Source: Arcobacteraceae bacterium (GTDB taxonomy: Bacteria; Campylobacterota; Campylobacteria; Campylobacterales; Arcobacteraceae). From it: a stretch of DNA of 30,351 nucleotides. The notes under the pieces were generated by a model. The model saw only the letters and a program-made list of their open reading frames with translations. It did no database searches and had not been told where the DNA came from. This document shows positions 2,079-16,410 of this stretch, piece after piece (the first letter of the stretch is position 1; each line of letters opens with the position of its first letter). Location: assembly GCA_048268245.1 (NCBI GenBank), contig JBLWVX010000018.1, positions 1 through 30,351 on the forward strand. Reading direction: 5' to 3'. A program made the translations under genes and the position numbers.

Positions 2079-4517
2079 TTAAAAGCTTTCCCACTCATCA
2101 TCTGATGAAGTATCATTGAAAGTTTTAGGTTCATATTTTGCTTGAGTTTGTGGTCTTGAAACTGTGTTTGATTGAGTGTTTGAACTAACACTATCATTTG
2201 TACTATTTATTGCTTTGATATCTTTTGAAATATCAATATTATCTTTTCCAGCAAACTCTTTTTCATTAGCTTTTGAAACAATATCTTTTGCTAATTCTGC
2301 TGTATTTAATGCAATATTTTTAGTCTCACCTGCAACTGTTGCATTTTTTTGAGTTTGTTGGTCTAATGAGTTAATAGCATCATTAATTTGTACAATTCCT
2401 GCTTCTTGTTCTTTTGAAGCACTTGAAACATCAGAAATAAGCTCAATTGTTTTATCAATATTTGAGTTTAATCCCTCGTAACCTTTAATCATCTCAGCTG
2501 CAATATTTTTACCTTCATTAGCTTTAATATTTGCACTCTCAACTAAATCTTTAATCTCTTTTGCTGCTTCTGCACTTCTTGAAGCTAGGTTTCTTACTTC
2601 TTGAGCAACAACTGCGAAACCTTTACCTGCTTCTCCAGCTGTTGCAGCTTCTACTGCTGCATTTAGTGATAATATATTTGTTTGAAAAGCAATTTGGTCA
2701 ATTACTGTAATTGCTTCATTAATAGAACTTACTTGATCATTAATTTCATCCATAGCTAATGTAGTTCTTGAAGCTAACTCTTCACCTTTATTTGCTGATT
2801 GTGTAACTTCATTTGCTAAAACAGACATTTCTGAAATTTTTTGTGTCGTAGAAGATACATTTCCAGTAATCTCTTCAAGTGCTGCCGCTGTTTCTTCAAG
2901 TGAAGCTGCTGCTTCATTTGAAGCCTGATTTAATGTATCAACATTTGATAATAAGTGTTCAGATGAATTATCTACAATAAGACCATTTTTCTTATTGTCA
3001 ATTAACATTTCAGTAATAGAAACACCTAAAGAGTTAACTCCATTTGCAAGTCTTTCTAAATGTTCTTTTATCCCATTTGTATCAACTTTACTTAAATAGT
3101 TGTAGTTTGAGAACTTTTCTAAAACATCTAAAATATTATCAATGTTATTCTCTAAATTATCACCCATTTTATTTAAAACATCTCTTAGTTCATTTAATGC
3201 AGGATTATTAACTGATGTTGTTATTCTTTGAGTTAAATCACCTTTTTCAAACTCATTTAAAACAGTAATTGTTTCATCAATAATAGCTCTATCTTCTTCT
3301 ATACCTTTTTTAGCTTTTTTGATATTTTCATTAACAACTTGTGCCATTAAACCAATCTCATCAAAACTATCTGTTTCAAGCTCTTTTACATCAGAAGACT
3401 TTCTATTTACATAATCAAAGAAACCTTCTAAACCATCTTGAAATTTAACTAATCTTTTTACAACAATATTATTAATTATAATGACAGCACCTGCGATTAC
3501 AAAAATAAGTAAAACTAAAGCAATAATCAAAATTAAGTTTCTAATAGCATTTGGTGTTTTTAAAACTTCTGATTCATCTATTTCAGATAAAATCGCCCAT
3601 TTAATATCAGAACCAATATTTAAAGGCGCATATGCTGATAATACTGGATTTCCATTATAGTCATCAATAATTTCAGTATTTGATTGACCATTTAATGCAT
3701 TTTGACTTCCTTTAGTTTTTACTTGCGTATTATTTGAGAAAGAAGTAATTAAACTATACTCTTTAGGATTAAGATAACTATCACTTCTCATAAGCTTATC
3801 AGAACCTACTAAATAGTCTTCTTGTGATTTTCCATAACCTTCTCTAAACTGCATAATTTTATTAATTGATTTATCACTTATTTGGAAAACTAAAACTGCT
3901 TCAACATTACCATCTTTAAAAATAGGTGTTCCTAAAAACATTGCTGGAGCATTGTTACTTGGTGCATAAGGTTTCATATCTTGGAATGTTGGTTCATTTG
4001 AGTTAAGTGTATTTGCAAAAACCATTCCTAAACCACTATCTTTTAATGAGCCATACTTTAAGTTTGCTCCATAATCAGACTCTTTTGCAGCTGTATATAT
4101 TACATGACCTGTTTGAGCATTTATTAAGAAAATATCATAATACCCATACTCTTGCATATAGCTTTGGAAATACTCTTCATATTTGTTTGTTATGTTTTTT
4201 ACAAGTTGATTTTTTACATCATATGTAGATTTTTCATTTAATTCAACCATATCAAAAGTTTTTTCAAGAGAATTGTAAAGTTCTAAAATATCTTTACTTT
4301 TAGATAAAACCTTAATATCTCCAACTCTCTCATTAAAAAAGTTTTTTATTTGATTTGCTTTTGAATCTCTAGCAGATGTTAGCATAGCGTAGTTCTGAGC
4401 TAAAATACCCTCTTTTGCTTTGCTTACTGAAAAACCAGCTATTATAATAGCAAGTAAACTTAATGACACTACAATAAGCCCTATTACTTTAGCTTTTATT
4501 GTCATTTTTTTTAACAT
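2079..4517 (-). CDS. Methyl-accepting chemotaxis protein with a periplasmic Cache-type sensor domain
   Basis: Two TM segments flank a periplasmic region containing YGYYDIFLI and [19 protein letters not shown]-like DEIGLMA follows. The canonical signalling hairpin [37 protein letters not shown] is present. Confidence 0.95.
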
Positions 4518-4788
4518 TTGCTTTCCTTATGTATAATTTTTAAACATTATAGAGAAAAAAGCTTTCAATCTTTATAAAAAATATAAAATAATATTTTTAA
4601 ATAACCATGACTTTAAAAATAAAAGTACTTTTCTAGGTATTTTTAGTATATTTAGTAATGAACATAAGCTTTTAATACTAAATAGTAACCCTTAAGATAA
4701 CTCAAAAATATGTATTTTTTACAACTCTTTATTATTAATCTTATTTTTTATTTTTTTTGATAAAATCAAAATAAAAAAATGGACTCTT

Positions 4789-5253
4789 ATGAATATTGAA
4801 AACTATTTTGAAAAAAATAAAATCACACAAAATTTAGCAGATTATGAGATTTTTTATCAAGTGTCACTTGGAAAGCTATGTTCTCTTACAAATAATACAG
4901 ATATAAACTATGATATTGAACTTCAATATGCTCTTGGTTCTATATATGAATTACTAAAAGATTTAAACACAATTGATAATATTGATGAAATATTTCAAGA
5001 TGAGTTAAAGAAACAAGCAGCAATGGATGCTCTGCAAAAATTTGCAAATGATAACTTAGATGATATAAAAACAGAAAAAATAGAAATAGAACATATGGTT
5101 CATGAAATAAACGATAATAGATTTTTCAATGAAACTATGATTAAAGTTTATGAAGAACACAAAGAAGAGCAAAAAAAGAAATGGCAAGAGATAATCACAG
5201 GTGACTTATCACAAGCAATTATTTTATCTTTAAAACAATTAGAAGAGAAGTAA
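4789..5253 (+). CDS. Hypothetical acidic protein
   Basis: 154-aa ORF with RBS GGA upstream and a terminator downstream. Confidence 0.75.
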   Translation: MNIENYFEKNKITQNLADYEIFYQVSLGKLCSLTNNTDINYDIELQYALGSIYELLKDLNTIDNIDEIFQDELKKQAAMDALQKFANDNLDDIKTEKIEIEHMVHEINDNRFFNETMIKVYEEHKEEQKKKWQEIITGDLSQAIILSLKQLEEK

Positions 5254-5266
5254 AACTTCTCTTTTT
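5243..5266. terminator. Bidirectional intrinsic terminator
   Basis: AAGAGAAGT-AAA-ACTTCTCTT followed by TTT, between convergent genes. Confidence 0.65.
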
Positions 5267-6222
5267 CAAAAAGAGTGGTTAAACTTCTCTTTATTTTTAA
5301 CTACCTCAGCAGATGATACTATATTCATAATCATTTCATCTTTACTATCTGAGAATTTTTCTATAATAATATCACAAACTTCTAATAGCTCTTTTTCATT
5401 GCTTAATTGACTTAAAATAATAGACTTATTATATAAAGCTAGTGCTACTTGCTTTAGAAGTACACCTTTTTCATTTTCATATTTTTCTATAACTTTATCA
5501 TAAGTTTCAATTGCTTTTCCAATATAGTTTTGTTCTCTATATCTACCAGCTTTATTTACATAAGCTTTTGCTACAAGTTCTTTGATATTCTTTTCTTCAT
5601 ATGTATTAAAATTATCAATTAAAAAATCATAAGCTTTAATAGCCTCTTCATTTTCATCTTCTTTTGCATACAATAAAGCTACATTAAATGAAGCATATGC
5701 AAGATTATCAATGACTTCTGGGTTTAGAGAGTCTTTAAAGTTTGCAATTAATTCTTTATATACTTCAATAGAGTCTTTTCTTTGCTTAAGTTGACTTATA
5801 CAAACTGCTTTATTTAAATAAGTCTTTACTAAAACAATTTCAAGTTGAGAAGAAGTGTCTTCAATAAACTTCTCTAAAAGTCTATCATAGCACTCTAACT
5901 CTTTTTGATAATCTTTTAATTTAGCATAGATTAAAGCCTTGTTGTAAAAACTATATGCCAAATATCTAAAAATTGTTTCATTTTTCGTATCTGCAAATTT
6001 TTCAATTATTTCATCATATGTTTCAATTACATCTTGATCTTCATTTAGATTTGTAAGTGCTGAGGCTTTTCCCATGAGTGTATAAAATACATCAAGGTCA
6101 TTGTCTTGAGCTACAGTTAGTAGCTCTGGGACTAAGAATAAAGCATCTTCAAACTCTTTATTTTGCATCTTTTGATTAAATTGGCTGTATAAATATTCAA
6201 AGTTTTCTTGATTCAATTTCAT
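5266..6222 (-). CDS. Soluble TPR-like repeat protein (diverged ~43-aa repeats)
   Basis: Recurrent pattern NKA..(L)..L....E.IE.YD..IEKF. The spacing from YDEIIEKF to YDRLLEKF is 43 aa, with about 6 units. RBS AAGGA. Confidence 0.85.
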   Translation of the reverse strand: MKLNQENFEYLYSQFNQKMQNKEFEDALFLVPELLTVAQDNDLDVFYTLMGKASALTNLNEDQDVIETYDEIIEKFADTKNETIFRYLAYSFYNKALIYAKLKDYQKELECYDRLLEKFIEDTSSQLEIVLVKTYLNKAVCISQLKQRKDSIEVYKELIANFKDSLNPEVIDNLAYASFNVALLYAKEDENEEAIKAYDFLIDNFNTYEEKNIKELVAKAYVNKAGRYREQNYIGKAIETYDKVIEKYENEKGVLLKQVALALYNKSIILSQLSNEKELLEVCDIIIEKFSDSKDEMIMNIVSSAEVVKNKEKFNHSF

Positions 6223-6275
6223 CCTTTTAATATTTGATAATAATTATTTTTAACAAAAGTATACTTGATTTATTA

Positions 6276-6755
6276 TTAACTTTTTGCAAAATCTTCTAAA
6301 GTTTTACCTTCTAGTCTATATCCTATCCATTCATCTTGGCTTTTTGCACCAAGACTTTCATAAAACTCTCTTGATGGAGTATTCCAATCTAAACATGACC
6401 ATTCAAATCTTCCACACTTTTCATCAAGTGCTTTTTTAGCAAGATGTTTTAACATCTTCTTACCTGCACCATTTCCTCTTTTAGACTCAGTAACATATAA
6501 ATCTTCTAAATAAATACCTTTTTTACCAAGCCAAGTTGAGTAATTGTAAAAATATACAGCATAACCAATAGCAACGCCATCTTCTTCACAAATCAAAGCT
6601 TTTACAGTAGAATCATTACCAAAAATTGCTTCTCTTGTTTGTTCTACATTTGTTTTTACTTCATGTTCTGCTTTTTCATAAACTGCTAATTCAATGATAA
6701 AATCTAATATTGTTTGAGCATCATTAGATACTGCATCTCTTATAACTAAAGACAT
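6276..6755 (-). CDS. GNAT family N-acetyltransferase (SSAT/diamine acetyltransferase-like)
   Basis: Motifs ELAVYEK, YSTWLGKKGIYLEDLYV, acetyl-CoA loop KRGNGAG, and LDWNTPSREFYESLGA. Confidence 0.92.
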   Translation of the reverse strand: MSLVIRDAVSNDAQTILDFIIELAVYEKAEHEVKTNVEQTREAIFGNDSTVKALICEEDGVAIGYAVYFYNYSTWLGKKGIYLEDLYVTESKRGNGAGKKMLKHLAKKALDEKCGRFEWSCLDWNTPSREFYESLGAKSQDEWIGYRLEGKTLEDFAKS

Positions 6756-6763
6756 TTTCTTCC

Positions 6764-7402
6764 TTAATTTAATTTTTCTATTTTTTCTTCAAAGTTTTCA
6801 TAATAACTGATAAATAAGTCATTATTCAACTCATCTTTAAACTCATTTATATAAGCTATGATATTCTCTTTTGTAGTAAACTCTTTTGCAAACTCATCTT
6901 TTAATTTGATATAAATAACAGTTCCTGAACCCTCATCATTTATACAAGGAGCTAAAGTATAAGTAGATAAATCTTTTGTGTTAAATTTATAAGCTGTTTC
7001 ATCTCCTACTTTTTTTGAAATTATATTCACACTTTTTGCGATTAAAAACAGAAAATACAATCCTACTTCTTTTAAAGATATTTCTTTATTTTCTATAGAG
7101 CTTTCTATCTTTTTTGAAGCTTGCTCTTCAACAAAAAAGTTTAACTCTTCTTTATTCATACCAATACCATTATCAACAATAGTAATAGAGTTATCAGATG
7201 GTTCAAAATAGACTTCCATCATACCTTCCCACTCTTTTAACTCTTTTTCAAACTCTGAATTATCTTTTAATTTTTTTAGTTTATTTACTGCTTCATTTGC
7301 ATTTGATAATAAAGCCTTTAAAAAAAGCCCTTTTTTTAGTTCATTGTTTTGAAATACTTGTTTATACTTATTTATATTAGTTAAATTTTTAAAATTATTC
7401 AT
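6764..7402 (-). CDS. Stand-alone HtpG/Hsp90 N-terminal (GHKL) domain paralog, predicted ATPase-dead
   Basis: Colinear with the N-domain of the htpG at 11992-13902: LLSNA, ITIVDNGIGMN.EEL, V.IISKK.G.E.AYK, L.PC...SGTVIYIKLKDE. Intact ORF with RBS AAGGA. Confidence 0.85.
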   Translation of the reverse strand: MNNFKNLTNINKYKQVFQNNELKKGLFLKALLSNANEAVNKLKKLKDNSEFEKELKEWEGMMEVYFEPSDNSITIVDNGIGMNKEELNFFVEEQASKKIESSIENKEISLKEVGLYFLFLIAKSVNIISKKVGDETAYKFNTKDLSTYTLAPCINDEGSGTVIYIKLKDEFAKEFTTKENIIAYINEFKDELNNDLFISYYENFEEKIEKLN

Positions 7403-7481
7403 ATTAAGTTCCTTTCATTTTGAATGATGAAACTTTATCTAAAGATTCTGAAAATAAACTAATTTATACAATATAAAATTA

Positions 7482-8297
7482 TTATAATTCATTTCTTAAA
7501 TAATTTTCTATCATAGGACGATAATCCTTTCTACATACTAAGTGTGTATCTAAACTTAATTCAACTTTTGTAAGCTTTAGTTTATCTGTGTAGCCAAACT
7601 TATCTATAATACTTTTTGAAAGTAGTGTTACTCCAAAACCAGCTTTTGTAAGTCCAAGCATCAACTCATAGTTTTGTAAAGCCATTGTTTTATAATCTAT
7701 ATCACTGTTTTGTTTCACATACTCTTGTAAGCAAATACAATAAGCACAAGTATCTCTATAAACTAGAAGATTATCTTTAGCTTCTTTATCTTTGGGTTCT
7801 ATAAAATATATATCATCTTTGAAGGTATTTAAAGTCTCTAAATCTTTATGATTTGGGTTTCCATTTATAAAAGCTATATCTATTTGATACTCTAAAAGTT
7901 GTTCTATTAAGTTTAGGCTACTATCTATGTTAAACTCTATTTTCATATCTTGAAAGTCTTTGTTTAATTGCTCGATTATAGGGATAAGTCTTATGGTTGC
8001 ATTTGATTGGGTTGTTCCCATCTTTAGAACTTCTTGATGATTGATATTTCTCATTTGAGAAGTGGCTTCTTCTACTTTTTTTACAATATCAACAGCAAAA
8101 GGGTATAATTTTTCGCCCTCATTTGTAAGTACAACACCTCGGTTTGTTCTATGAAATAGATTATAACCTAAAGTTTTTTCAAGCTGTTTGATTCTTGAAG
8201 TTATGTTTGACTGAGTATAGCCCAACTTTTTAGCTGCATTTGATATGCTTTTTTCATTTTTAACAGTGATAAATGCTTTTAATAAATTTGAGTCCAT
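7482..8297 (-). CDS. LysR family transcriptional regulator
   Basis: N-terminal HTH SISNAAKKLGYTQSNITSRIKQLEKTLGYNLFHRTNRGVVLTNEG, followed by a substrate-binding domain. Confidence 0.95.
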   Translation of the reverse strand: MDSNLLKAFITVKNEKSISNAAKKLGYTQSNITSRIKQLEKTLGYNLFHRTNRGVVLTNEGEKLYPFAVDIVKKVEEATSQMRNINHQEVLKMGTTQSNATIRLIPIIEQLNKDFQDMKIEFNIDSSLNLIEQLLEYQIDIAFINGNPNHKDLETLNTFKDDIYFIEPKDKEAKDNLLVYRDTCAYCICLQEYVKQNSDIDYKTMALQNYELMLGLTKAGFGVTLLSKSIIDKFGYTDKLKLTKVELSLDTHLVCRKDYRPMIENYLRNEL

Positions 8298-8322
8298 AAA
8301 ACTTCCTATAATCTTTTGTGTT

Positions 8323-9066
8323 TTAAATAGCTATAGTTTGAACTACTAAACCAACAGCTATGATAAACAGTAATACTTTTAAAATCTTAGCATAGAACTT
8401 TGCATCGATTTTTTTCTTTATTTTTATACCAAAATATAAACCAATAGCAACTAAAAACATACTAGTAAATGATATTTCAACAGCTGTACTACTAAATGCT
8501 CCAAAATAAACAAAAGTTGCTATCTGCCCTACTTTTGTAAATAAAAAACATAAATTTGATAGCTGAATCGTATCTTTTTTAGAGTACTTAAGCTCTAAAG
8601 TATACATGATAGTCAAAGGAGCTACAACATTTGTAAGACCTGATACAACACCACCAATCAAACCTAATCCATAAGTAGAAGACTTAGGATAAGAAGAGAT
8701 AAAAGTAGCTCTAACTTTTATAGCTGATTGAATCAAATAAGCAAAGATGATAAAAGCTAATAGCAACTTAAAATACTCAGAATTAAAATAAACAAGTATA
8801 TAAGTTCCAACACAAGAGCCAAGCACCATAAGAAGTATAATAAACCAAAACTTTTTCAAAGCCTCAAAAAACTTCCCTTCACTTAAAATACTAACCAAAT
8901 TCACAATCATAGTAGGAACAATAATATAAGTAATAGTAGTTTGAATATCAGTAAAAAGAGCAACAACAGGCGTAGAGATAAGCCCAAATCCAAAACCAAT
9001 ACTTCCATGAATAAAAGAAGAAATCAGTATAACAAAAGTAAAAACAATAAGAAATTCAGTTTCCAT
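8323..9066 (-). CDS. Sulfite exporter TauE/SafE (TSUP) family membrane protein
   Basis: About 8 hydrophobic segments with motifs HGSIGFGFGLISTP and GLIGGVVSGLT. Start moved from 9108 to the ATG at 9066, which has an AAAGG RBS. Confidence 0.85.
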   Translation of the reverse strand: METEFLIVFTFVILISSFIHGSIGFGFGLISTPVVALFTDIQTTITYIIVPTMIVNLVSILSEGKFFEALKKFWFIILLMVLGSCVGTYILVYFNSEYFKLLLAFIIFAYLIQSAIKVRATFISSYPKSSTYGLGLIGGVVSGLTNVVAPLTIMYTLELKYSKKDTIQLSNLCFLFTKVGQIATFVYFGAFSSTAVEISFTSMFLVAIGLYFGIKIKKKIDAKFYAKILKVLLFIIAVGLVVQTIAI

Positions 9067-9162
9067 ATCATTACCTTTAATATTACATATAACTATGTGT
9101 AATACCAAATAGTATTACTAATCATTATATCAGAAGTTTATTAAAGGGGTTTGAATTTGTTT

Positions 9163-9492
9163 TTATTTAGTAAGTATTTTTTTGATAGTATTTTCAAGTT
9201 TTGGTAGATGAGTTCTTATAATATCTTCAATAAGCATTTTATTTACACCTTCATAATCATGTGCAATAAAGTTTCGTACATCATAAGTACCTTTTATTGG
9301 TAAACTTGAAGCAAAATCTTCATTTCTTAGTTTATGTAAGGTTTCACCTATTTGAAGCAAACACATTAATGTGGCATCATATCCCATAGTATCTGTAAGA
9401 AGTTCTTCAATACTTTTAAATCTTTGACGAAAGGAATTAATATCTTCTATTTTTTCTAAAATAAAATGTAGCTTTTCATAAGAACTAGACAT
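9163..9492 (-). CDS. hepT: HEPN (DUF86/HepT-like) RNase toxin
   Basis: RX4HXY motif RNFIAHDY and LLQIGE; overlaps the upstream MNT gene by 8 nt. Confidence 0.88.
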   Translation of the reverse strand: MSSSYEKLHFILEKIEDINSFRQRFKSIEELLTDTMGYDATLMCLLQIGETLHKLRNEDFASSLPIKGTYDVRNFIAHDYEGVNKMLIEDIIRTHLPKLENTIKKILTK

Positions 9493-9793
9493 ATAAAATA
9501 TCTTTTAAAGCATATTTTTTAAATGTACGGCTATTGTTGTCAATAGTAGCAATATCAACTTTTAGATTGAGTGACTTTTGTAAATCTTCTTTGATTTGTG
9601 AAAGTTTTGAAAAGGCTTCAAAACCTGAGTATTTTTCAACAAAAGTAGGTTCTATATCATAAAGTAAATCTATATCACTATCTTTTGTCTGTGTATTTTT
9701 AGCATAAGAGCCAAATACTCCTACAATTTTAAATCCATCTTTTAAAAGTTTTTGTTTTTCTATTTTGATTTTATCTAATAACTCTTTTTCCAT
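9485..9793 (-). CDS. mntA: Minimal nucleotidyltransferase (MNT/MntA-like) antitoxin
   Basis: GSX10DXD motif FGSYAKNTQTKDSDIDL plus KVDI; 102 aa, directly upstream of the HEPN gene. Confidence 0.88.
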   Translation of the reverse strand: MEKELLDKIKIEKQKLLKDGFKIVGVFGSYAKNTQTKDSDIDLLYDIEPTFVEKYSGFEAFSKLSQIKEDLQKSLNLKVDIATIDNNSRTFKKYALKDILYV

Positions 9794-9851
9794 AATATGC
9801 CTTTTTAGATATGTAATTATATCATATAAAATTAAACATACTCAACTTCTT

Positions 9852-11783
9852 TTATTTCTTATTATGATTTTCAAAAATATCTATATATCTTAATAATCTT
9901 TCTTTTAGTTCTTTATCTTCAAAAGAGTTAGCCCAATCTTTTAGTTCAGAAAAAGACCAGTTTTTAAGAGATGTACCTTTAAACTCTTCTTTCCACTCTT
10001 CTATTCTATTATCAATATTAGAATCTTTTGCTTTTTCTAAAAGAGTTAACATTTTGTATTGAATAAGCTCACTTTTATCATCTTTTACAAGCTTAGAATA
10101 TAAATTTAAATCTTTTTGTGAATTTAATTTATTTAATATTAAATTTGTTTCTATTTTATTTATTAAAGCTCTCGCAATTTGTTCTAAAATACTATTATCT
10201 TTTGAATATTCAAATCTTTTTACTACTTCATCATACACTTCAATCGATTCTTCACTTCTGTTTAAGTGTCCAAGTGTTATACCCTTATTATGTAAAGCAC
10301 TTGAAACTTTTTCTAATATACTATTATTTTTTGAATCTTCAAATCTTTTTACTACTTTATCATATACTTCTATCGCTTCTTCACTTCTGTTTAAGTGTCC
10401 CAGTGTTACACCCTTATTATGTAAAGCACTTGCAACTTTTTCTAATATACTATTATCTTTTGAATCTTCAAATCTTTTTACTACTTCATCATATACTTCT
10501 ATCGATTCTTCGATTCTGTTTAAGTGTCCAAGTCTTACACCTTTATTATGTAAAGCACTTGCAACATTCTTTAAAATGCTATTATCTTTTGAATCTTCAA
10601 ATCTTTTTACTACTTCATCATATACTTCTATCTCTTCTTTACTTTTGTTTAATTGTCCAAGTCTTACCCCCTTGTTAAATAAAGCTTTTACAACATTCTT
10701 TAAAATACTATTATCTTTTGAATCTTCAAATCTTTTTACTACTTCATCATATACTTCTATCGCTTCTTCACTTCTGTTTAATTGTCCAAGTGTTACACCC
10801 TTACTAACTAAAGCACTTGAAACTTTCTCTAATATATTATTATCTTTTGAATCTTCAAGTCTTTTTACTACTTCATCATATACTTCTATTGCCTTTTCAT
10901 CTTTATCAAGTTTTAAAAACTCTGAACCCTTATTAACTAAAGCTTTTGCAACTTCTTCCAAGATATTATTATCTTTTGAATCTTCAAATCTTTTTACTAT
11001 TTCATCATATACTTCTATTGCTTCTTCACTTCTGTTTAATTGTCCTAAAAGTAATGCATGAGTAAATAATGCTTGTATTTTATTTTTATCATTTTCAGCT
11101 AATTGAATTGCATCTTTAATGTTTGTAATTGCTTTTTCTATATTATTATTTTTATAATTTTCTATAACTATTTTAAATATATCTTTATAATCTTTTTCTT
11201 TCCTTTTTAAATCACTTCTATCATTTAAGCCATCAATAAATTCATCAATTTTGTCACTTGTTTCATTTTTTATATTTGATAGTTCTTTCTCTGCTTTTTC
11301 TTCTAATTCTTTTTTTGACTCTTCAACTATATTATTAAAAACTTTCTGAGCTTTTTCATCAATCCAACTTTTAACTTCTTCTTCCGCTTTAAATTTAGCA
11401 ATCCTTTCAAATTTAAAAGCAAAGAAAATAACTACAGCTGTAATCAATACTCCAAATAAACCTATTGAAGCAGATACTATTACAGACAATTTATCTACAC
11501 TAGAATTAATATCCTCAATTCTATTATTCTGATAAGTTATCTCTTTTTGCAAATCTTCTTTATTTACATACTCGTTTAACTCTTTTTCTAACTCTTTTAT
11601 CTCATTTTCTTTTTGAATTATCTGTCCCATGATAAGAGTGACTTTTTCATCGTTAATCTTTTGAGCATACTCTTGTGAAGTTTTGAGTTCAAATAGTTTT
11701 TGATTTATTTCTTCATTTGAAGCGAAAAGAGAAGATATAAATATAAAAGTTAAAATTATAGATTTAAAAAAAGAGTTGTTCAT
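9852..11783 (-). CDS. Membrane-anchored TPR-like repeat protein (signal peptide, coiled coil, one TM helix, 7 x 43-aa repeats)
   Basis: Signal peptide MNNSFFKSIILTFIFISSLFA; the ATG at 11783 has a GGGA RBS (the ORF track starts at GTG 11810). TM segment LSVIVSASIGLFGVLITAVVIFFAF, then a tandem repeat array. Confidence 0.88.
   Translation of the reverse strand: MNNSFFKSIILTFIFISSLFASNEEINQKLFELKTSQEYAQKINDEKVTLIMGQIIQKENEIKELEKELNEYVNKEDLQKEITYQNNRIEDINSSVDKLSVIVSASIGLFGVLITAVVIFFAFKFERIAKFKAEEEVKSWIDEKAQKVFNNIVEESKKELEEKAEKELSNIKNETSDKIDEFIDGLNDRSDLKRKEKDYKDIFKIVIENYKNNNIEKAITNIKDAIQLAENDKNKIQALFTHALLLGQLNRSEEAIEVYDEIVKRFEDSKDNNILEEVAKALVNKGSEFLKLDKDEKAIEVYDEVVKRLEDSKDNNILEKVSSALVSKGVTLGQLNRSEEAIEVYDEVVKRFEDSKDNSILKNVVKALFNKGVRLGQLNKSKEEIEVYDEVVKRFEDSKDNSILKNVASALHNKGVRLGHLNRIEESIEVYDEVVKRFEDSKDNSILEKVASALHNKGVTLGHLNRSEEAIEVYDKVVKRFEDSKNNSILEKVSSALHNKGITLGHLNRSEESIEVYDEVVKRFEYSKDNSILEQIARALINKIETNLILNKLNSQKDLNLYSKLVKDDKSELIQYKMLTLLEKAKDSNIDNRIEEWKEEFKGTSLKNWSFSELKDWANSFEDKELKERLLRYIDIFENHNKK
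10146..11048 (-). repeat. Intragenic tandem array, 7 x 129 bp
   Basis: The anchor TTATCTTTTGAATCTTCAAATC (with minor variants) recurs at 10195, 10324, 10453, 10582, 10711, 10840 and 10969, an exact 129-bp period. Confidence 0.95.
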
Positions 11784-11855
11784 AAAATTGTCCCATAAAT
11801 TTTTGAACACATTTTATTATTTTGTAGCTATATGTGAGGTTAATGATACTAACTT

Positions 11856-11996
11856 TATACCCAAATAAATAACTAGTTGTATGTAGATTCAAGGCGTAAA
11901 TATTTTTTCTTGATTGAGCCTACATTTAGTAGGTGATTGAAAGAAAAACTATTTGCAACGCTGAAGATGCGTGCAAATAGTTGATTTATTTTTATA
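11856..11996 (+). repeat. ERIC-like palindromic miniature element (141 bp)
   Basis: Bounded by TATA at both ends and begins TATACCCAAATAAAT. Contains CAAGGCG, a central GAGCCTACATTTAGTAGGTGATTG and CAACGC, matching the order of ERIC consensus blocks. Folds into one long bulged hairpin. Confidence 0.7.
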
Positions 11997-13902
11997 GAGC
12001 TTTTGCTGTGATTCTTGATAATCTTTGCGCAAACGCTACTGCGTCTGTGATATCCATACCCTCAGATAATTTTGCTTGGTCTAATAGTACCCATGATACA
12101 TCTTCTACCATTTTATCATCTGCTAAACCGTTTAATTTTGTTACGATTTCGTGGTCTGGGTTGATTTCTAGAATTGGTGCTGATTCTGGCATTTCTTGTC
12201 CCATTGCTCTCATCATTTGAGCCATTTGTGCCATTTGAGCATCACCTGCATCTTTTACTACACAAGATGGTGACTCACTTAGTCTGTTTGTTACTCTTAC
12301 ATCAGAAACTGACTCACCTAAAATATCTTTGATTTTTTTAGTGATGTCTTCAAATTTCTCTTCAACTTCTTTTTTCTCTTCTTCTGATTGCTCTACTTTT
12401 GGAGCTTCACAAGCTGTGATGTCTTTGAATTCCCACTCTTTATATGCACCATACATTGGAGTTACGATTTCATCGATCTCTTTGTCATCTAAGATTAAAA
12501 CTTCGATGTCATTTTTCTTATATGCTTCTAATAATGGAGAGTTTCTTAATACTTTTTCATTTTCACCTACGATAAAGTAGATAGCTTTTTGTTCACTATC
12601 AGCAGCTTCTTTATAAGCTTCTAATGAAGTCATTTTTCCAGCTTCTGTTTTTGTAGATTTAAATCTGATTAGTTCTAATAACTTATCTTTATTTGTGAAG
12701 TCTTGGTAAGCACCCTCTTTAAGTGGTCTATTGTATTGCTCAATAAATTCAGCATATTTTTCTTCATCTTTAGAAAGTTTTTTGATTTCAGATAAAATCT
12801 TTTTAACAGATGATTGTTTGATGTTTGCTAAAATTCTGTTTTCTTGTAAGATTTCTCTTGATACATTTAGTGGTAAATCTTCACTATCGATAATACCTCT
12901 AACAAATCTTAAGTAAGTTGGTAATAACTCTTTTTCATCATCAGTAATAAATACTCTTTTAACATAAAGCTTAACACCTGGTTGATAATCAGCTCTGTAC
13001 ATATCCATAGGTGCAGTTTTTGGGATATAGAAAAGTGTAGTGTACTCATTTACACCCTCAGCTTTTGTATGAATAGTAGCCATTGGGTCTTGTGAATCAT
13101 GAGAGATTGACTTATAGAAGTCGTTGTACTCTTCTTCTTTTACTTTTGATTTTGGTTGAGTCCATAAAGCTGTTGCTTCATTGATTTTTTCATGTCTTTT
13201 TTCAACTGTTTTTTTAGCTTCTTTTCCAGCTTTTTTATCTTCTTCGCTTAACTCTTCTTCTACTTCTTCACTATAGTTTAAGAAAATTGGGTAAGCGATG
13301 TGGTTTGAGTATTTACCAATAATATTTTCAATTCTTGGCTTACTTGCAAACTCTTCGGCTTCTTCATCTTTAAGTTTGATATAAATTACAGTTCCTGAAG
13401 ACTCTTTTGTACAAGGTGATAAATCAAACTCACCAGTACCATCAGAAGACCACTTATAAGCTTGCTCTTCACCTGCTTTTTTAGAGATAACATCTACTTT
13501 TGAAGCTACCATAAATACTGAATAGAATCCAACACCAAACTGTCCAATTAAGTTTGAGTCTTTTTTCGCATCACCTGTTAGGGCTTCAACAAATGATTTA
13601 GTTCCTGATTTTGCAATAGTACCAATAGAAGCAATTAAATCTTCTTCATTCATACCAATACCATTATCAATAATAGTTAAAGACTTATCTTCTTCATCAA
13701 AAGCGATATTAATCTCACCTGACCAATCTGCATATTGTTCTTTTAATTTGTCATCAGTTAATTTTAAATAGTTTAACTTATCAATTGCATCACTTGCATT
13801 TGATACTAATTCTCTTATAAAAATCTCTTTATTTGAGTATAAAGAGTGTGTCATTAAATGTAATAGTTGTCCTACTTCTGTCTGAAATTGATGTTTTGCC
13901 AT
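11992..13902 (-). CDS. htpG: Molecular chaperone HtpG (Hsp90)
   Basis: Motifs HSLYSNKEIFIRELVSNASDA, DNGIGM, GTIAKSGT, IGQFGVGFYS, LYVKRVFI, LRFVRGIIDSEDLPLNVSREILQ and LEINPDH. RBS AGGAG. Confidence 0.99.
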   Translation of the reverse strand: MAKHQFQTEVGQLLHLMTHSLYSNKEIFIRELVSNASDAIDKLNYLKLTDDKLKEQYADWSGEINIAFDEEDKSLTIIDNGIGMNEEDLIASIGTIAKSGTKSFVEALTGDAKKDSNLIGQFGVGFYSVFMVASKVDVISKKAGEEQAYKWSSDGTGEFDLSPCTKESSGTVIYIKLKDEEAEEFASKPRIENIIGKYSNHIAYPIFLNYSEEVEEELSEEDKKAGKEAKKTVEKRHEKINEATALWTQPKSKVKEEEYNDFYKSISHDSQDPMATIHTKAEGVNEYTTLFYIPKTAPMDMYRADYQPGVKLYVKRVFITDDEKELLPTYLRFVRGIIDSEDLPLNVSREILQENRILANIKQSSVKKILSEIKKLSKDEEKYAEFIEQYNRPLKEGAYQDFTNKDKLLELIRFKSTKTEAGKMTSLEAYKEAADSEQKAIYFIVGENEKVLRNSPLLEAYKKNDIEVLILDDKEIDEIVTPMYGAYKEWEFKDITACEAPKVEQSEEEKKEVEEKFEDITKKIKDILGESVSDVRVTNRLSESPSCVVKDAGDAQMAQMAQMMRAMGQEMPESAPILEINPDHEIVTKLNGLADDKMVEDVSWVLLDQAKLSEGMDITDAVAFAQRLSRITAKAL

Positions 13903-13985
13903 TCTAATTTCTCCTATAATTTTTAAATTTTATTTTGATAATTTTAACAAAACTTTATAAAAGAAAGCTAAAGTTTTAATAAATT

Positions 13986-14012
13986 TTAGCACTTTTATCA
14001 ATCAAGTGCTAA
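13986..14012. promoter_or_regulatory. CIRCE-like HrcA operator upstream of htpG
   Basis: TTAGCACTT-N9-AAGTGCTAA, a perfect inverted repeat with a 9-nt spacer. Canonical CIRCE is TTAGCACTC-N9-GAGTGCTAA. It overlaps a minus-strand extended -10 element TGCTAAAAT (13983-13991). Confidence 0.8.
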
Positions 14013-14091
14013 TTTTATATACTTTTTCAACTTTACATTTGTTAAACAAAATTAAAATATAATTATTTATTAATTATAAAAAGGACTCAAG

Positions 14092-14466
14092 ATGTTAAAA
14101 AATATTATAAATAAAAAAAGTATTTATTATGTGACAACTTTGTTTATTGCTTTAATCGTTGGTTTTTATGGTGGAATAGTAGATATACTTCAAACAAATG
14201 CAGTTCTTGAAGTAAATAAAACCTTACAATATCCACTATACTTTTTCCCTATGCTTGGAGTATTCAAAATCTTAGGAGCTATTGCTTTACTTTTACCCAG
14301 AAATTTTTCTACTATAAAACAGTGGGCTTATGCAGGTTTTACTTTTGATTTTATTGCTGCTTCATATTCACATTTTGCTATTGGGGATTCAGTTGACAAA
14401 ATTATTACACCTTTAGTGATACTTGGAATTCTTTCTATATCTTATTTTTTAAAAAATAAATTTTAA
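14092..14466 (+). CDS. DoxX-like family membrane protein
   Basis: Motifs LQYPLYF..MLGVFKILGAIALL.P and KQWAYAGFTFDFIAASYSH; four hydrophobic segments. Confidence 0.85.
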   Translation: MLKNIINKKSIYYVTTLFIALIVGFYGGIVDILQTNAVLEVNKTLQYPLYFFPMLGVFKILGAIALLLPRNFSTIKQWAYAGFTFDFIAASYSHFAIGDSVDKIITPLVILGILSISYFLKNKF

Positions 14467-14532
14467 TTTATTATATAAAAAAAAGATATAACTAGATAGA
14501 CTTACAAAATAGATAAACTAAAGGATAAAACT

Positions 14533-16410
14533 TTGGATAAAAACAAATTTTTAGAAGATTTAAACGAAGTATATGAGTACTTAGATGCTCAAAAAACAAA
14601 TACAAATAAACTAATATCTCACTTAGAAAATAAAGAGTATGAGAAATTAACTATCATTGATGAGTTTGCAAAAAAACTAGACTTAGAAATGAGAGATGAT
14701 TTAAGATTTGCCCTGCTAACTAGACTTGTAAGCCTTAGAGATGACTCACTTGTACAAGTACTTAAAAAGTATGAGAAAAGTGAAGAAGAGATAGTAGAAC
14801 TTCAAGAGAAAGCATACTGCTTTGTAAGAGACTTTTGGCATGAAAAGCATAAGAACACAATCGATTATATAAAAAACAACAATTTACTAACTCCTTTTTA
14901 CCAAGAGATTTTCCAAGGTGTTTATAATGTAGGTCTTAAAATGTCTTCATGGCAGAGTGCATGGACTGCACATATTATAAATGGTATAAACAAAGAGTTA
15001 TTAGCCAAATTTGATGGTGATGAGTCAAAAGTATATGAATACTTAGAAAACAATCACTTATATGATTTAGGTCACAATGATATGATAGCAGATAGATCAT
15101 ACTCAGCACTTGTAAAACAAAAAGAGGATTACAAATCTCAAGCATATATCAAAGCTTTCAAAGAGCAAACAACAGCTGTAGTAGATGAATTAGAAGAGTT
15201 TGAAGAAAGACTTATTGAACTTGAAGATGAAGTATATGGTGAAAAATGGAACTATATTTTATATATCCAAACACTAATCAAAGCTTTTAGTGAAGACAAA
15301 GAGCATAAACTAGTTGAGAAATGGGCAGATGTAGATAGAGCTTGGATGAAAATAAAAGCCCCTATTCAAATAGGTCACCCTTTAGAGTACTATGAAGATC
15401 ACTTTAGAAAAGCAGTTGCTCTTGAATGGGATATAAGACTTTCAAATCCACAGTTTGCACAAAATGACCACAGAGTAAACAAAATCAAATCAGCTTTTGC
15501 AAAAGTATTTAATAGAATTGAGCAAACACAAGAATACAAAAGTATTTATGATTTTTCACTAAAATCACTTGATAAGGTACAACTTTATATAGGAAGACCT
15601 GCTGTATTTTTTGGAGCTGAGTTCAATGGACTATTTTCAGCCCAAGTTGTACCAAATGATGAGATAGTTTCAAAAGAAGAAGGTAAAAAAATCTTTGCAT
15701 TTAGTGATGAAATTCTTCAAAGCAGTCGTGCAAAGCCATTTTTAAAGATTTCAAAAGAGACTTTTGGACAAGAGCTACTTACAGAAGATAGAACTTTCCT
15801 TTTCAATGAAACTTCAAAATGGCACCAAGTTTATGATATCACTACTATTGGACATGAGTTTGGTCATATTTTATGGTGTGATGATGAAACAGAATCAGCT
15901 ATGAATAAAACAGGAAACTTCAAAAACATAGAAGAGTTCAAAGCTACAACAGGTGGATTAGTTTCATTTTTCCTAGATGAAGAAGATGATGAAAAAGAAC
16001 TAGAAAGACAAGTACTAATAGATACAGTAAAAAGAGCCGTAGGACTTATGGGATGGATGGAAGTAGATGAAGTTCAACCTTACTATTGTGAAGGTCTTAT
16101 TCACTTAGATGGACTTTTTGATAGTGGTATTTTAGATTGGGATGAGAAAAACCTAATCGTTGATATGAGTGATGAAAAACATGAAGCACTTAAAAAGTGG
16201 TATGTTCAAACTTACACAGATTTAGCAAAACACTACCTTGATAAAAAAGACGCAACACAGTTCTTAAATCAGTATGCTGTAAAAGAAGAGAAATACTTCA
16301 TGCCAGTAAACAAAAAAATAAACTCATTTGTAAAATACTACTTTAAAAGATACCAAGAAATTGGTCAAGAGTTAGATACAGAAGATAAGAAAGATAACTA
16401 CATAAACTAA
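14533..16410 (+). CDS. ciaB: Invasion antigen CiaB family protein
   Basis: 625 aa with motifs QIGHPLEYYEDHFRKAVALEWDIR, GLFSAQVVPNDE.VS...GKKIFAF, TIGHEFGH and FKNIEEFKATTGGL. TTG start with AAGGA RBS. Confidence 0.92.
   Translation: MDKNKFLEDLNEVYEYLDAQKTNTNKLISHLENKEYEKLTIIDEFAKKLDLEMRDDLRFALLTRLVSLRDDSLVQVLKKYEKSEEEIVELQEKAYCFVRDFWHEKHKNTIDYIKNNNLLTPFYQEIFQGVYNVGLKMSSWQSAWTAHIINGINKELLAKFDGDESKVYEYLENNHLYDLGHNDMIADRSYSALVKQKEDYKSQAYIKAFKEQTTAVVDELEEFEERLIELEDEVYGEKWNYILYIQTLIKAFSEDKEHKLVEKWADVDRAWMKIKAPIQIGHPLEYYEDHFRKAVALEWDIRLSNPQFAQNDHRVNKIKSAFAKVFNRIEQTQEYKSIYDFSLKSLDKVQLYIGRPAVFFGAEFNGLFSAQVVPNDEIVSKEEGKKIFAFSDEILQSSRAKPFLKISKETFGQELLTEDRTFLFNETSKWHQVYDITTIGHEFGHILWCDDETESAMNKTGNFKNIEEFKATTGGLVSFFLDEEDDEKELERQVLIDTVKRAVGLMGWMEVDEVQPYYCEGLIHLDGLFDSGILDWDEKNLIVDMSDEKHEALKKWYVQTYTDLAKHYLDKKDATQFLNQYAVKEEKYFMPVNKKINSFVKYYFKRYQEIGQELDTEDKKDNYIN

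Follow-up and report, generated by a model that had tools for sequence, protein, structure and literature searches.

Stand-alone Hsp90 N-domain and TPR-repeat genes downstream of htpG in Arcobacteraceae: probably a mosaic of separate neighbours

Introduction

In eukaryotes, tetratricopeptide repeat (TPR) co-chaperones such as Hop/Sti1, PP5 and FKBP51/52 dock on the MEEVD tail of Hsp90. Here we describe an 8.6-kb span on the minus strand of the genome of an Arcobacteraceae bacterium (GenBank assembly GCA_048268245.1), in which htpG, the gene of the bacterial Hsp90, is followed by genes for two TPR proteins with a repeat period of 43 residues (TPR43), one membrane-bound (TPRmem) and one soluble (TPRsol), for a separate copy of the Hsp90 N-terminal domain (mini-HtpG), and for an acetyltransferase of the GNAT family. 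The span runs from position 13902 down to position 5266 of a stretch of 30,351 nt of contig JBLWVX010000018.1, hereafter the window, whose coordinates are used throughout. In the portions of PMC3708813 considered here, bacterial Hsp90 is held to work without dedicated co-chaperones and no obligate one is described; a real TPR partner would matter if true. The titles and abstracts of the literature that we surveyed describe neither an N-domain-only HtpG paralogue nor a TPR partner of HtpG in Arcobacteraceae.

An earlier note, made from the letters of the window alone, had read the span as a candidate Hsp90 accessory system in which htpG with TPRmem, and mini-HtpG with GNAT and TPRsol, form a regulatory or adaptor module. 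The genes proved to be real, TPR43 genes do lie near htpG, and mini-HtpG is maintained. However, the heat-shock operator belongs to htpG only, a terminator closes htpG, an unrelated flanking gene (DUF7897) is linked to htpG equally often, the components occur in mixed combinations, and GNAT is of the thialysine type. We consider it probable, while leaving real room for doubt, that the span combines separate neighbours into a mosaic and does not form one chaperone helper system. The real novelty of the locus is mini-HtpG, a natural and selection-maintained Hsp90 N-domain without the lid, the N-terminal strap and the catalytic residue.

Results

htpG as a probable transcription unit of its own

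A perfect inverted repeat of the CIRCE type (controlling inverted repeat of chaperone expression) lies upstream of htpG. We found a single match to its consensus in the window, where 0.02 were expected by chance, and seven sites genome-wide against none for a control pattern. Other sites precede groES-groEL and an hsp20 gene; the motif is therefore the heat-shock operator of this organism. We surveyed 45 stretches of 11-30 kb from related genomes, the window included, 43 of which hold htpG: each of the 43 carries exactly one CIRCE, and the two stretches without htpG carry none. Among the 23 stretches with compared coordinates, the site lies within ~165 bp upstream of the htpG start, and no CIRCE precedes TPRmem, mini-HtpG, GNAT or TPRsol. 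The HspR-type HAIR motif gave no matches, and a promoter scan returned 74 sites against 63 expected in this AT-rich DNA.

Directly 3' of the htpG stop codon, we identified a hairpin with a run of uridines behind it; its folding energy is -16.8 kcal/mol, with z -6.6 relative to shuffled sequences. This terminator-like hairpin is conserved in relatives, including two genomes (G005, stretch L040; G113, stretch L114) in which TPRsol is the next gene. Judged from CIRCE and the terminator, the TPR genes appear to share neither heat-shock regulation nor a transcript with htpG, which appears to be a monocistronic, CIRCE-controlled heat-shock gene with its own terminator. The encoded HtpG ends in ...FAQRLSRITAKAL (...RITAKAL) and carries no MEEVD tail, a caveat that the earlier note had raised itself.

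The hairpin belongs to a conserved structured element of ~115 nt that directly follows htpG in many Arcobacteraceae. Its consensus comprises 33 base pairs, 10 of them with compensatory changes and 95.4% of the cells paired; the covariation of 0.285 compares with 0.099 in shuffled alignments (0 of 500 reached 0.285) and at most 0.09 in slid controls. The 5' half can alternatively fold as a simple terminator hairpin. A covariance model locates the element after htpG in dozens of loci and, in the same genome as the window, finds two weaker copies after amtB and after fabI (L144:1501-1633 and L145:1501-1620), so that it is a dispersed element at the 3' ends of genes. After htpG, it forms the left edge of a variable cargo slot. 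Rfam gave no match in the window at gathering score, and on the element itself only chance-level miRNA matches.

Linkage of TPR43 genes to htpG across the family

The synteny and co-occurrence that the earlier note proposed as a check were addressed in two ways. We tabulated the htpG neighbourhoods of 43 genomes, including the window, with open reading frames (ORFs) labelled by BLASTP against the window proteins, and we took the distribution of the TPR43 family from whole-genome searches of 184 family genomes (E ≤ 1e-8); a word-index search with TPRsol gave six proteins. The relatives are not independent, and the counts are meant as a description of the genomes, not as statistics. Of the 184 genomes, 39 have a TPR43 match, nearly all of them from three genera (6/6 with the own genome included, 22/25 and 7/7). 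Far from being scattered, TPR43 genes stay close to htpG, at no more than 12 kb in 37 of these 39 genomes. The exceptions are G172, where TPRmem is 337 kb from htpG, and G145, where the genes are on separate contigs of a 370-contig assembly.

This part of the check favoured the proposal, but the control did not. The gene of the unrelated DUF7897 protein, which flanks htpG on the opposite side, is found no more than 7 kb away from it in 37 of those 39 genomes (it is unlinked in G172, and the positions for G134 are absent from the listing). Because DUF7897 is linked equally often, the neighbourhood is taken to be inherited vertically, and the linkage of TPR43 to htpG, which had been the main argument for an accessory system, is uninformative on function: TPR43 genes would lie near htpG because of descent and conserved synteny. 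DUF7897 also stands beside htpG in many genomes that have no TPR43 gene. It is a divergent neighbour of htpG in most of the family, and the two are linked no less consistently than TPR43 and htpG.

The common backbone reads DUF7897< DoxX< HtpG> [variable slot] TauE> LysR> [variable] GNAT> TPRsol>, beyond which the downstream genes are conserved too. Of the 43 loci, 34 contain TPRsol, with GNAT (18 loci), LysR (8), mini-HtpG, htpG, DctM or YitT (2 each) as its upstream neighbour. TPRmem immediately follows htpG in nine loci from four genera, and both pairings of an HtpG domain with a TPR43 protein coexist in only four (G000, G002, G004 and G132). Mini-HtpG, GNAT, TPR43 and htpG thus come in many combinations and orders, contrary to what a fixed module would lead one to expect. 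Even where unrelated cargo has entered between htpG and TPRsol, TPRsol keeps its place at the islet's far end, which argues against a need for co-transcription.

The slot after htpG holds, in different relatives, the Septu genes PtuA/PtuB with Fic (PDC-S04), DUF2971 (PADLOC PDC-S31), MntA/HepT, DUF6602 with DUF6172, a RelA_SpoT-like gene, an FRG-domain gene, DUF4160 with DUF4145, or an HD-CE+HATPase_c_3 gene. This slot acts as an integration hotspot for defence and toxin-antitoxin genes (L050, L036/L038, L119, L124, L135, L116 and L121). In some genomes, the interval between LysR and GNAT holds a TAXI-TRAP transporter or an opposite-strand MarR-OMP-FusC-MFP efflux block.

Structure and residues of mini-HtpG

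Mini-HtpG aligns with residues 25-210 of HtpG (37% identity, E 9e-37), in keeping with its description in the earlier note as an HtpG N-domain copy. The NCBIfam HtpG model matches it over positions 24-207 only, with 80 bits against a cutoff of 371. An AlphaFold2 model from a 17-sequence alignment (predicted local distance difference test, pLDDT, 91.2; predicted template-modelling score, pTM, 0.89) has the N-terminal Bergerat-fold ATP-binding domain, and Foldseek matches it to Grp94-N (1u0z) and to the HtpG N-domain of Borrelia burgdorferi (7u4c) with an E-value of 3e-15 and template-modelling (TM) scores of 0.73-0.80. We mapped the residue numbers through an alignment to yeast Hsp82, and we take the equivalent residues to have the same roles in adenine binding and catalysis. 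N34 (yeast N37), D77 (D79), G79/G81 (G81/G83) and T161 (T171) show no variation among members, and G114 (G123) hardly any. Mini-HtpG can plausibly bind an adenine nucleotide or a similar ligand.

Other parts of the Hsp90 machinery are reduced or absent in mini-HtpG. There is no full ATP lid with a GxxGxG hinge: the lid is 9-22 residues shorter, and the hinge GQFGVGFYS is replaced by KEVGLYFLF, which keeps one glycine and loses two of three. The first 22 residues are unlike the conserved strand and helix 1 of Hsp90. At the catalytic glutamate of helix 2 (yeast E33), the window protein, P0003, P0007 and P0010 have alanine (A30); this position is alanine in this genome and its two closest relatives and glutamate in most other members. 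The protein ends at residue 212 without a Pfam HSP90 (PF00183) match, and hence without the middle domain, which bears the catalytic arginine, and the C-terminal dimerisation domain. With most of the lid, the N-terminal strand and helix, the middle and C-terminal domains and, in this genome, the catalytic glutamate missing, mini-HtpG is most likely to bind but not hydrolyse a nucleotide or similar ligand, and should be unable to act as a chaperone clamp. The equipment with which Hsp90 hydrolyses ATP, dimerises at the N-terminus and clamps its clients appears to be gone. The pseudo-ATPase proposed in the earlier note thus seems to be real, maintained by selection and probably non-hydrolysing.

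Distribution, origin and selection of mini-HtpG

A length-restricted protein search returned 31 proteins, 23 of which (189-213 residues, 48-100% identity) constitute the mini-HtpG family, the rest being fragments of HtpG. All source names given are from Arcobacteraceae, with named records from Arcobacter, Malaciobacter, Halarcobacter and Aliarcobacter. The ESM Atlas lists HATPase_c_3-only clusters of 209-247 residues in other phyla, some of which are labelled as fragments. In a quick maximum-likelihood tree of 79 N-domains, which does not place the origin of mini-HtpG among the HtpG lineages, the eight mini-HtpG rows form one branch with a long stem (Shimodaira-Hasegawa-like approximate likelihood ratio test, SH-aLRT, 100).

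Among the 184 family genomes, ten carry mini-HtpG, all of them together with TPRsol; the gene follows LysR in six and precedes TauE in four. In G150, it stands directly after htpG, as expected of a tandem partial duplication. A record from Aliarcobacter vitoriensis has it next to Mla genes; htpG does not occur within 10 kb of it there, and the genome gives no TPRsol match.

We estimated the ratio of nonsynonymous to synonymous substitutions (dN/dS) by the Nei-Gojobori method; values of dS above ~0.7 are near saturation in this AT-rich DNA. Against G002 and G003, mini-HtpG gives a dN/dS of 0.10-0.11, and htpG gives 0.09-0.10. The reading frame is intact in 11 of 11 genomes carrying the gene, a good Shine-Dalgarno site precedes it, and 36 columns are invariant among members that are only ~50% identical. 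By these measures mini-HtpG, a single-origin paralogue confined to Arcobacteraceae by the source names given, is under purifying selection. In view of its dN/dS and the intact frame, we rejected a classification of mini-HtpG as a pseudogene.

Among relatives that lack the gene, the closest is G001, which shows a clean deletion of ~625 bp of mini-HtpG (L036:12059-12156). What stays is the intergenic region upstream and the final 18 nt of the ORF, fused before the ribosome-binding site of GNAT. GNAT and TPRsol are intact in G001 after the loss and remain constrained (dN/dS 0.12 and 0.10, respectively); therefore, neither depends on mini-HtpG.

The TPR43 proteins

The period of 43 residues was confirmed in TPRmem as a 129-bp unit repeated 6.9 times with 86% matches (10160-11045, Tandem Repeats Finder), and seven clean units can be laid out in the protein. 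TPRsol shares the period and matches TPRmem with 31% identity (E 1e-42), so the two are paralogues. Pfam matches identify both as TPR-fold proteins, as does the structural model for TPRsol. The AlphaFold2 (AF2) model of TPRsol from a 13-sequence alignment (pLDDT 93.9, pTM 0.87) is an all-helical TPR superhelix, for which Foldseek ranks consensus TPR, kinesin light chain and LGN structures highest (8chy, 6swu, 6ejn and 3sf4; TM 0.5-0.62). The TPR domains of Sti1/Hop rank 27th and 45th with a TM score of 0.37, no better than generic TPRs. The 13 aligned orthologues of TPRsol share an invariant N-K-A motif in each repeat and a conserved C-terminal tail, and dN/dS is 0.07-0.12. Taken together, TPRsol and TPRmem would be local paralogues that serve as generic peptide-binding scaffolds.

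TPRmem has two hydrophobic segments by hydropathy, at residues 13-31 and ~108-133, which fits the membrane tethering suggested in the earlier note. From the N-terminus, the hydrophobic segment 13-31 is followed by a coiled coil, one transmembrane segment at ~108-133, a Lys/Arg-rich stretch, the seven 43-residue units and a C-terminal cap. According to the positive-inside rule, the repeats are probably cytoplasmic. Members of the family have 393-732 residues and are named in their sources only "tetratricopeptide repeat protein", "hypothetical protein" or "membrane protein". The protein is a mosaic: between G000 and G002 (L037:8636-10657), the first ~75 residues are near-identical and residues ~85-240 are replaced. 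Overall identity is 65% and dN/dS 0.54-0.67 (0.62 overall), against 98-99% identity for the flanking HtpG and MntA, a pattern suggestive of cassette exchange or diversifying selection.

The C-terminal domain of TPRmem (~105 residues, 545-652; window 9855-10178, minus strand) is matched by no Pfam model. We found it in 166 representative clusters, where it mostly caps TPR arrays. Two of the 42 scanned proteins with this domain have an N-terminal SMEK_N or trypsin-like domain.

GNAT and the TauE-LysR block

The GNAT protein aligns without gaps over residues 1-157 of 159 with PDB entry 12jc, "Thialysine Acetyltransferase" (E 6.8e-58), and also matches 2fe7 and human diamine acetyltransferase 2 (E 8.4e-26). 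This end-to-end similarity to thialysine and spermidine/spermine N-acetyltransferase (SSAT) enzymes gives substance to another caveat of the earlier note, that GNAT looks like a polyamine acetyltransferase, and points to an enzyme for small molecules. In G021 and G142, GNAT accompanies TauE-LysR with neither TPR43 nor mini-HtpG. The combination of TauE, LysR and a thialysine-type GNAT suggests, by homology, that a small amine or sulfur compound is exported or detoxified.

Organisation of the locus

The features of the locus are collected in Table 1. The ORF list contains nine minus-strand ORFs from 13902 to 5266, so the co-orientation stated in the earlier note holds, as do its gaps of 8 bp between mini-HtpG and GNAT and of 53 bp between GNAT and TPRsol. 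TPRmem does follow htpG, at a distance of 181 bp; the hairpin between them had been overlooked. The twofold pairing of an HtpG domain with a TPR43 protein exists in the window, but the description omitted the four genes between the pairs (MntA/HepT, TauE and LysR). The 2.68-Mb assembly contains only two TPR43 genes and two Hsp90 N-domain genes, all at this locus. Related strains keep the gene order, as contigs of four runs aligned to the window show, one contig covering 5225-9822; joints with flanks of only 20-26 letters were disregarded. The terminator-like hairpin after TPRsol is the sole site from a terminator consensus scan of 4500-14600. In PADLOC, only the MntA-like and HepT-like genes are matched by families; TPRmem, TPRsol, mini-HtpG and GNAT are not.

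Table 1. Features of the htpG neighbourhood in window coordinates.
Feature	Position	Strand	Basis and remarks
DUF7897 protein, 625 aa	14533..16410	+	Pfam E 2.5e-247; divergent from htpG
CIRCE-type inverted repeat (HrcA operator)	13986..14012		TTAGCACTT-N9-AAGTGCTAA, perfect repeat; upstream of htpG
htpG, full-length bacterial Hsp90, 636 aa	11992..13902	-	NCBIfam HtpG equivalog 728 bits (cutoff 371); Pfam HSP90 E 9.5e-119
Structured element after htpG stop	11870..11983	-	Includes terminator-like hairpin 11947-11982, then U-run
TPRmem, 652 aa	9852..11810	-	Pfam TPR families
MntA-like nucleotidyltransferase (type VII antitoxin)	9485..9793	-	Pfam NTP_transf_2 E 1.4e-11; NCBIfam MntA 42.5 bits (cutoff 60); PADLOC PDC-S09
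HepT-like (HEPN) RNase toxin	9163..9492	-	Pfam HepT-like E 1.3e-15; ORF overlaps MntA ORF by 8 bp
TauE/SafE-family membrane exporter	8323..9108	-	Pfam TauE E 7.6e-26
LysR-family regulator	7482..8297	-	Pfam HTH_1 and LysR_substrate; best NCBIfam PtrR, below cutoff
mini-HtpG, stand-alone Hsp90 N-domain paralogue, 212 aa	6764..7402	-	Shortened lid, Ala at catalytic Glu position
GNAT, thialysine/SSAT (small-molecule) type, 159 aa	6276..6755	-	Aligns to PDB 12jc
TPRsol, predicted soluble TPR superhelix, 318 aa	5266..6222	-	Pfam TPR families; AF2 model
Terminator-like hairpin after TPRsol	5243..5263	-	Terminator consensus scan

Discussion

We favour a reading of the 8.6-kb span as a vertically inherited, insertion-prone neighbourhood downstream of htpG that would consist of separate units. 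The first would be the monocistronic heat-shock gene htpG, with CIRCE upstream and its own terminator downstream. A variable slot would form the second, occupied by TPRmem and MntA/HepT here and by defence-type cargo in relatives, and a conserved co-oriented TauE-LysR-(mini-HtpG)-GNAT-TPRsol block the third. Mini-HtpG would have arisen once, by partial duplication of htpG, and have been retained by selection, and the repeated pattern of an Hsp90 domain next to TPR43 would reflect local duplications, in a single syntenic neighbourhood, of the two kinds of gene.

Several observations weigh against this mosaic. The only two TPR43 genes of the genome adjoin its only two Hsp90-domain genes, and the position of TPRmem directly after htpG recurs in four genera. 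Mini-HtpG is accompanied by TPRsol in ten of ten genomes and occurs in none of the 145 genomes without a TPR43 match, although the ten belong to three related genera and are not independent. In L050, mini-HtpG adjoins TPRsol with a gap of 23 bp. GNAT is tightly spaced with TPR43 in more than one arrangement, as GNAT>TPRsol in 18 loci and as TPRmem>GNAT with a 2-bp gap in G084 (L112:5286-7090); we offer no explanation for this spacing beyond shared descent.

It is unlikely that TPRmem, possibly along with mini-HtpG and TPRsol, is cargo of a defence or conflict hotspot with no relation to the chaperone. This idea draws on the slot itself, which elsewhere holds Septu, Fic, DUF2971, MntA/HepT and other defence-type genes, on the mosaic and fast evolution of TPRmem beside a 98% identical HtpG, and on its C-terminal cap, found also at the end of TPR arrays that carry SMEK_N or trypsin-like domains. 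However, neither a PADLOC match nor an effector domain was found for these proteins, and TPRsol and mini-HtpG are under ordinary purifying selection.

Also unlikely is a lineage-specific HtpG accessory module in which the TPR43 proteins, TPRmem from the membrane, would serve HtpG as adaptors or co-chaperones, mini-HtpG would regulate it as a pseudo-ATPase and GNAT would acetylate it. The proximity of TPR43 to htpG, the nine loci with TPRmem directly after htpG and the strict company of mini-HtpG and TPRsol in the 184-genome set all agree with such a module, as does the invariant Asn-Lys ladder of TPRsol, which is typical of peptide-binding TPR grooves; the vacancy for an obligate bacterial co-chaperone in the portions of PMC3708813 cited above is also compatible with it. 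Against it stand the equal linkage of DUF7897, CIRCE at htpG alone, the conserved terminator before the next gene, and the 145 family genomes with a near-identical HtpG and no TPR43 match. The distant TPRmem of G172, the thialysine type of GNAT, the HtpG tail without MEEVD and the low ranks of Hop/Sti1 point in the same direction. Furthermore, the supporting cases are phylogenetically clustered, and we see neither a regulatory signal nor a sequence feature that would connect the genes with HtpG. We regard it as similarly unlikely that a canonical bacterial HtpG has here its first dedicated TPR partners, TPRsol and TPRmem, with mini-HtpG as an N-domain mimic that would compete for partners or an ATP-pocket ligand and so tune or protect HtpG in a subset of Arcobacteraceae.

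Mini-HtpG might instead be a target mimic, a sponge or decoy for a compound directed at the Hsp90 ATP pocket or for another adenine-like ligand, within a tolerance block with TauE, LysR and GNAT; we deem this highly doubtful. The adenine-binding residues are kept while the lid, the N-terminal strap and the catalytic machinery are lost, mini-HtpG flanks TauE-LysR in ten of ten family genomes, and the equivalent position in relatives has received either a FusC-type efflux pump accompanied by MarR or a TAXI-TRAP transporter. These ten cases nevertheless amount to two independent gene positions, one per clade; the gene of Aliarcobacter vitoriensis is found beside Mla genes without TauE, LysR or GNAT; and there is neither a biosynthetic cluster nor a known ligand. 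Finally, a functionless, decaying remnant of a partial htpG duplication, which the clean deletion in G001 and the absence from most family genomes might suggest, is extremely improbable given the intact frames, the htpG-like dN/dS, the invariant columns and the good Shine-Dalgarno site.

On the preferred reading of a mosaic, mini-HtpG remains of interest in its own right. Small, predicted to be soluble and easy to express, it is a ready minimal Bergerat module for asking what a lone Hsp90 head does.

Comparison with known systems

Mini-HtpG shares the Bergerat alpha/beta fold and the adenine-binding residues of the Hsp90/HtpG N-domain; unlike that domain, it stands alone, with a short lid, 22 unrelated N-terminal residues and, here, alanine in place of the catalytic glutamate. 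The TPR43 proteins resemble eukaryotic TPR co-chaperones in being TPR superhelices encoded near an Hsp90 gene, with an Asn-Lys ladder in TPRsol. They differ in the period of 43 instead of 34 residues, in the TM score of 0.37 and in the absence of co-regulation signals, and their HtpG has no MEEVD. Kinesin light chain, LGN/Pins and designed consensus TPRs are closer, as the best matches of the TPRsol model and through Pfam TPR_12-type matches, although identity to TPRsol is 11-19% and no shared partner or function is implied.

The MntA/HepT genes follow the type VII pair in that an NTP_transf_2 gene overlaps a HepT-like gene, whereas both fall under the NCBIfam equivalog cutoffs; the pair has no bearing on the Hsp90 question. 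GNAT, ungapped over 157 of 159 residues, belongs with the thialysine N-epsilon-acetyltransferase/SSAT2 family (12jc, 2fe7 and 2bei), from which the window-type GNAT differs in being sometimes tightly spaced with a TPR43 gene, an arrangement of which we know no earlier report for such enzymes.

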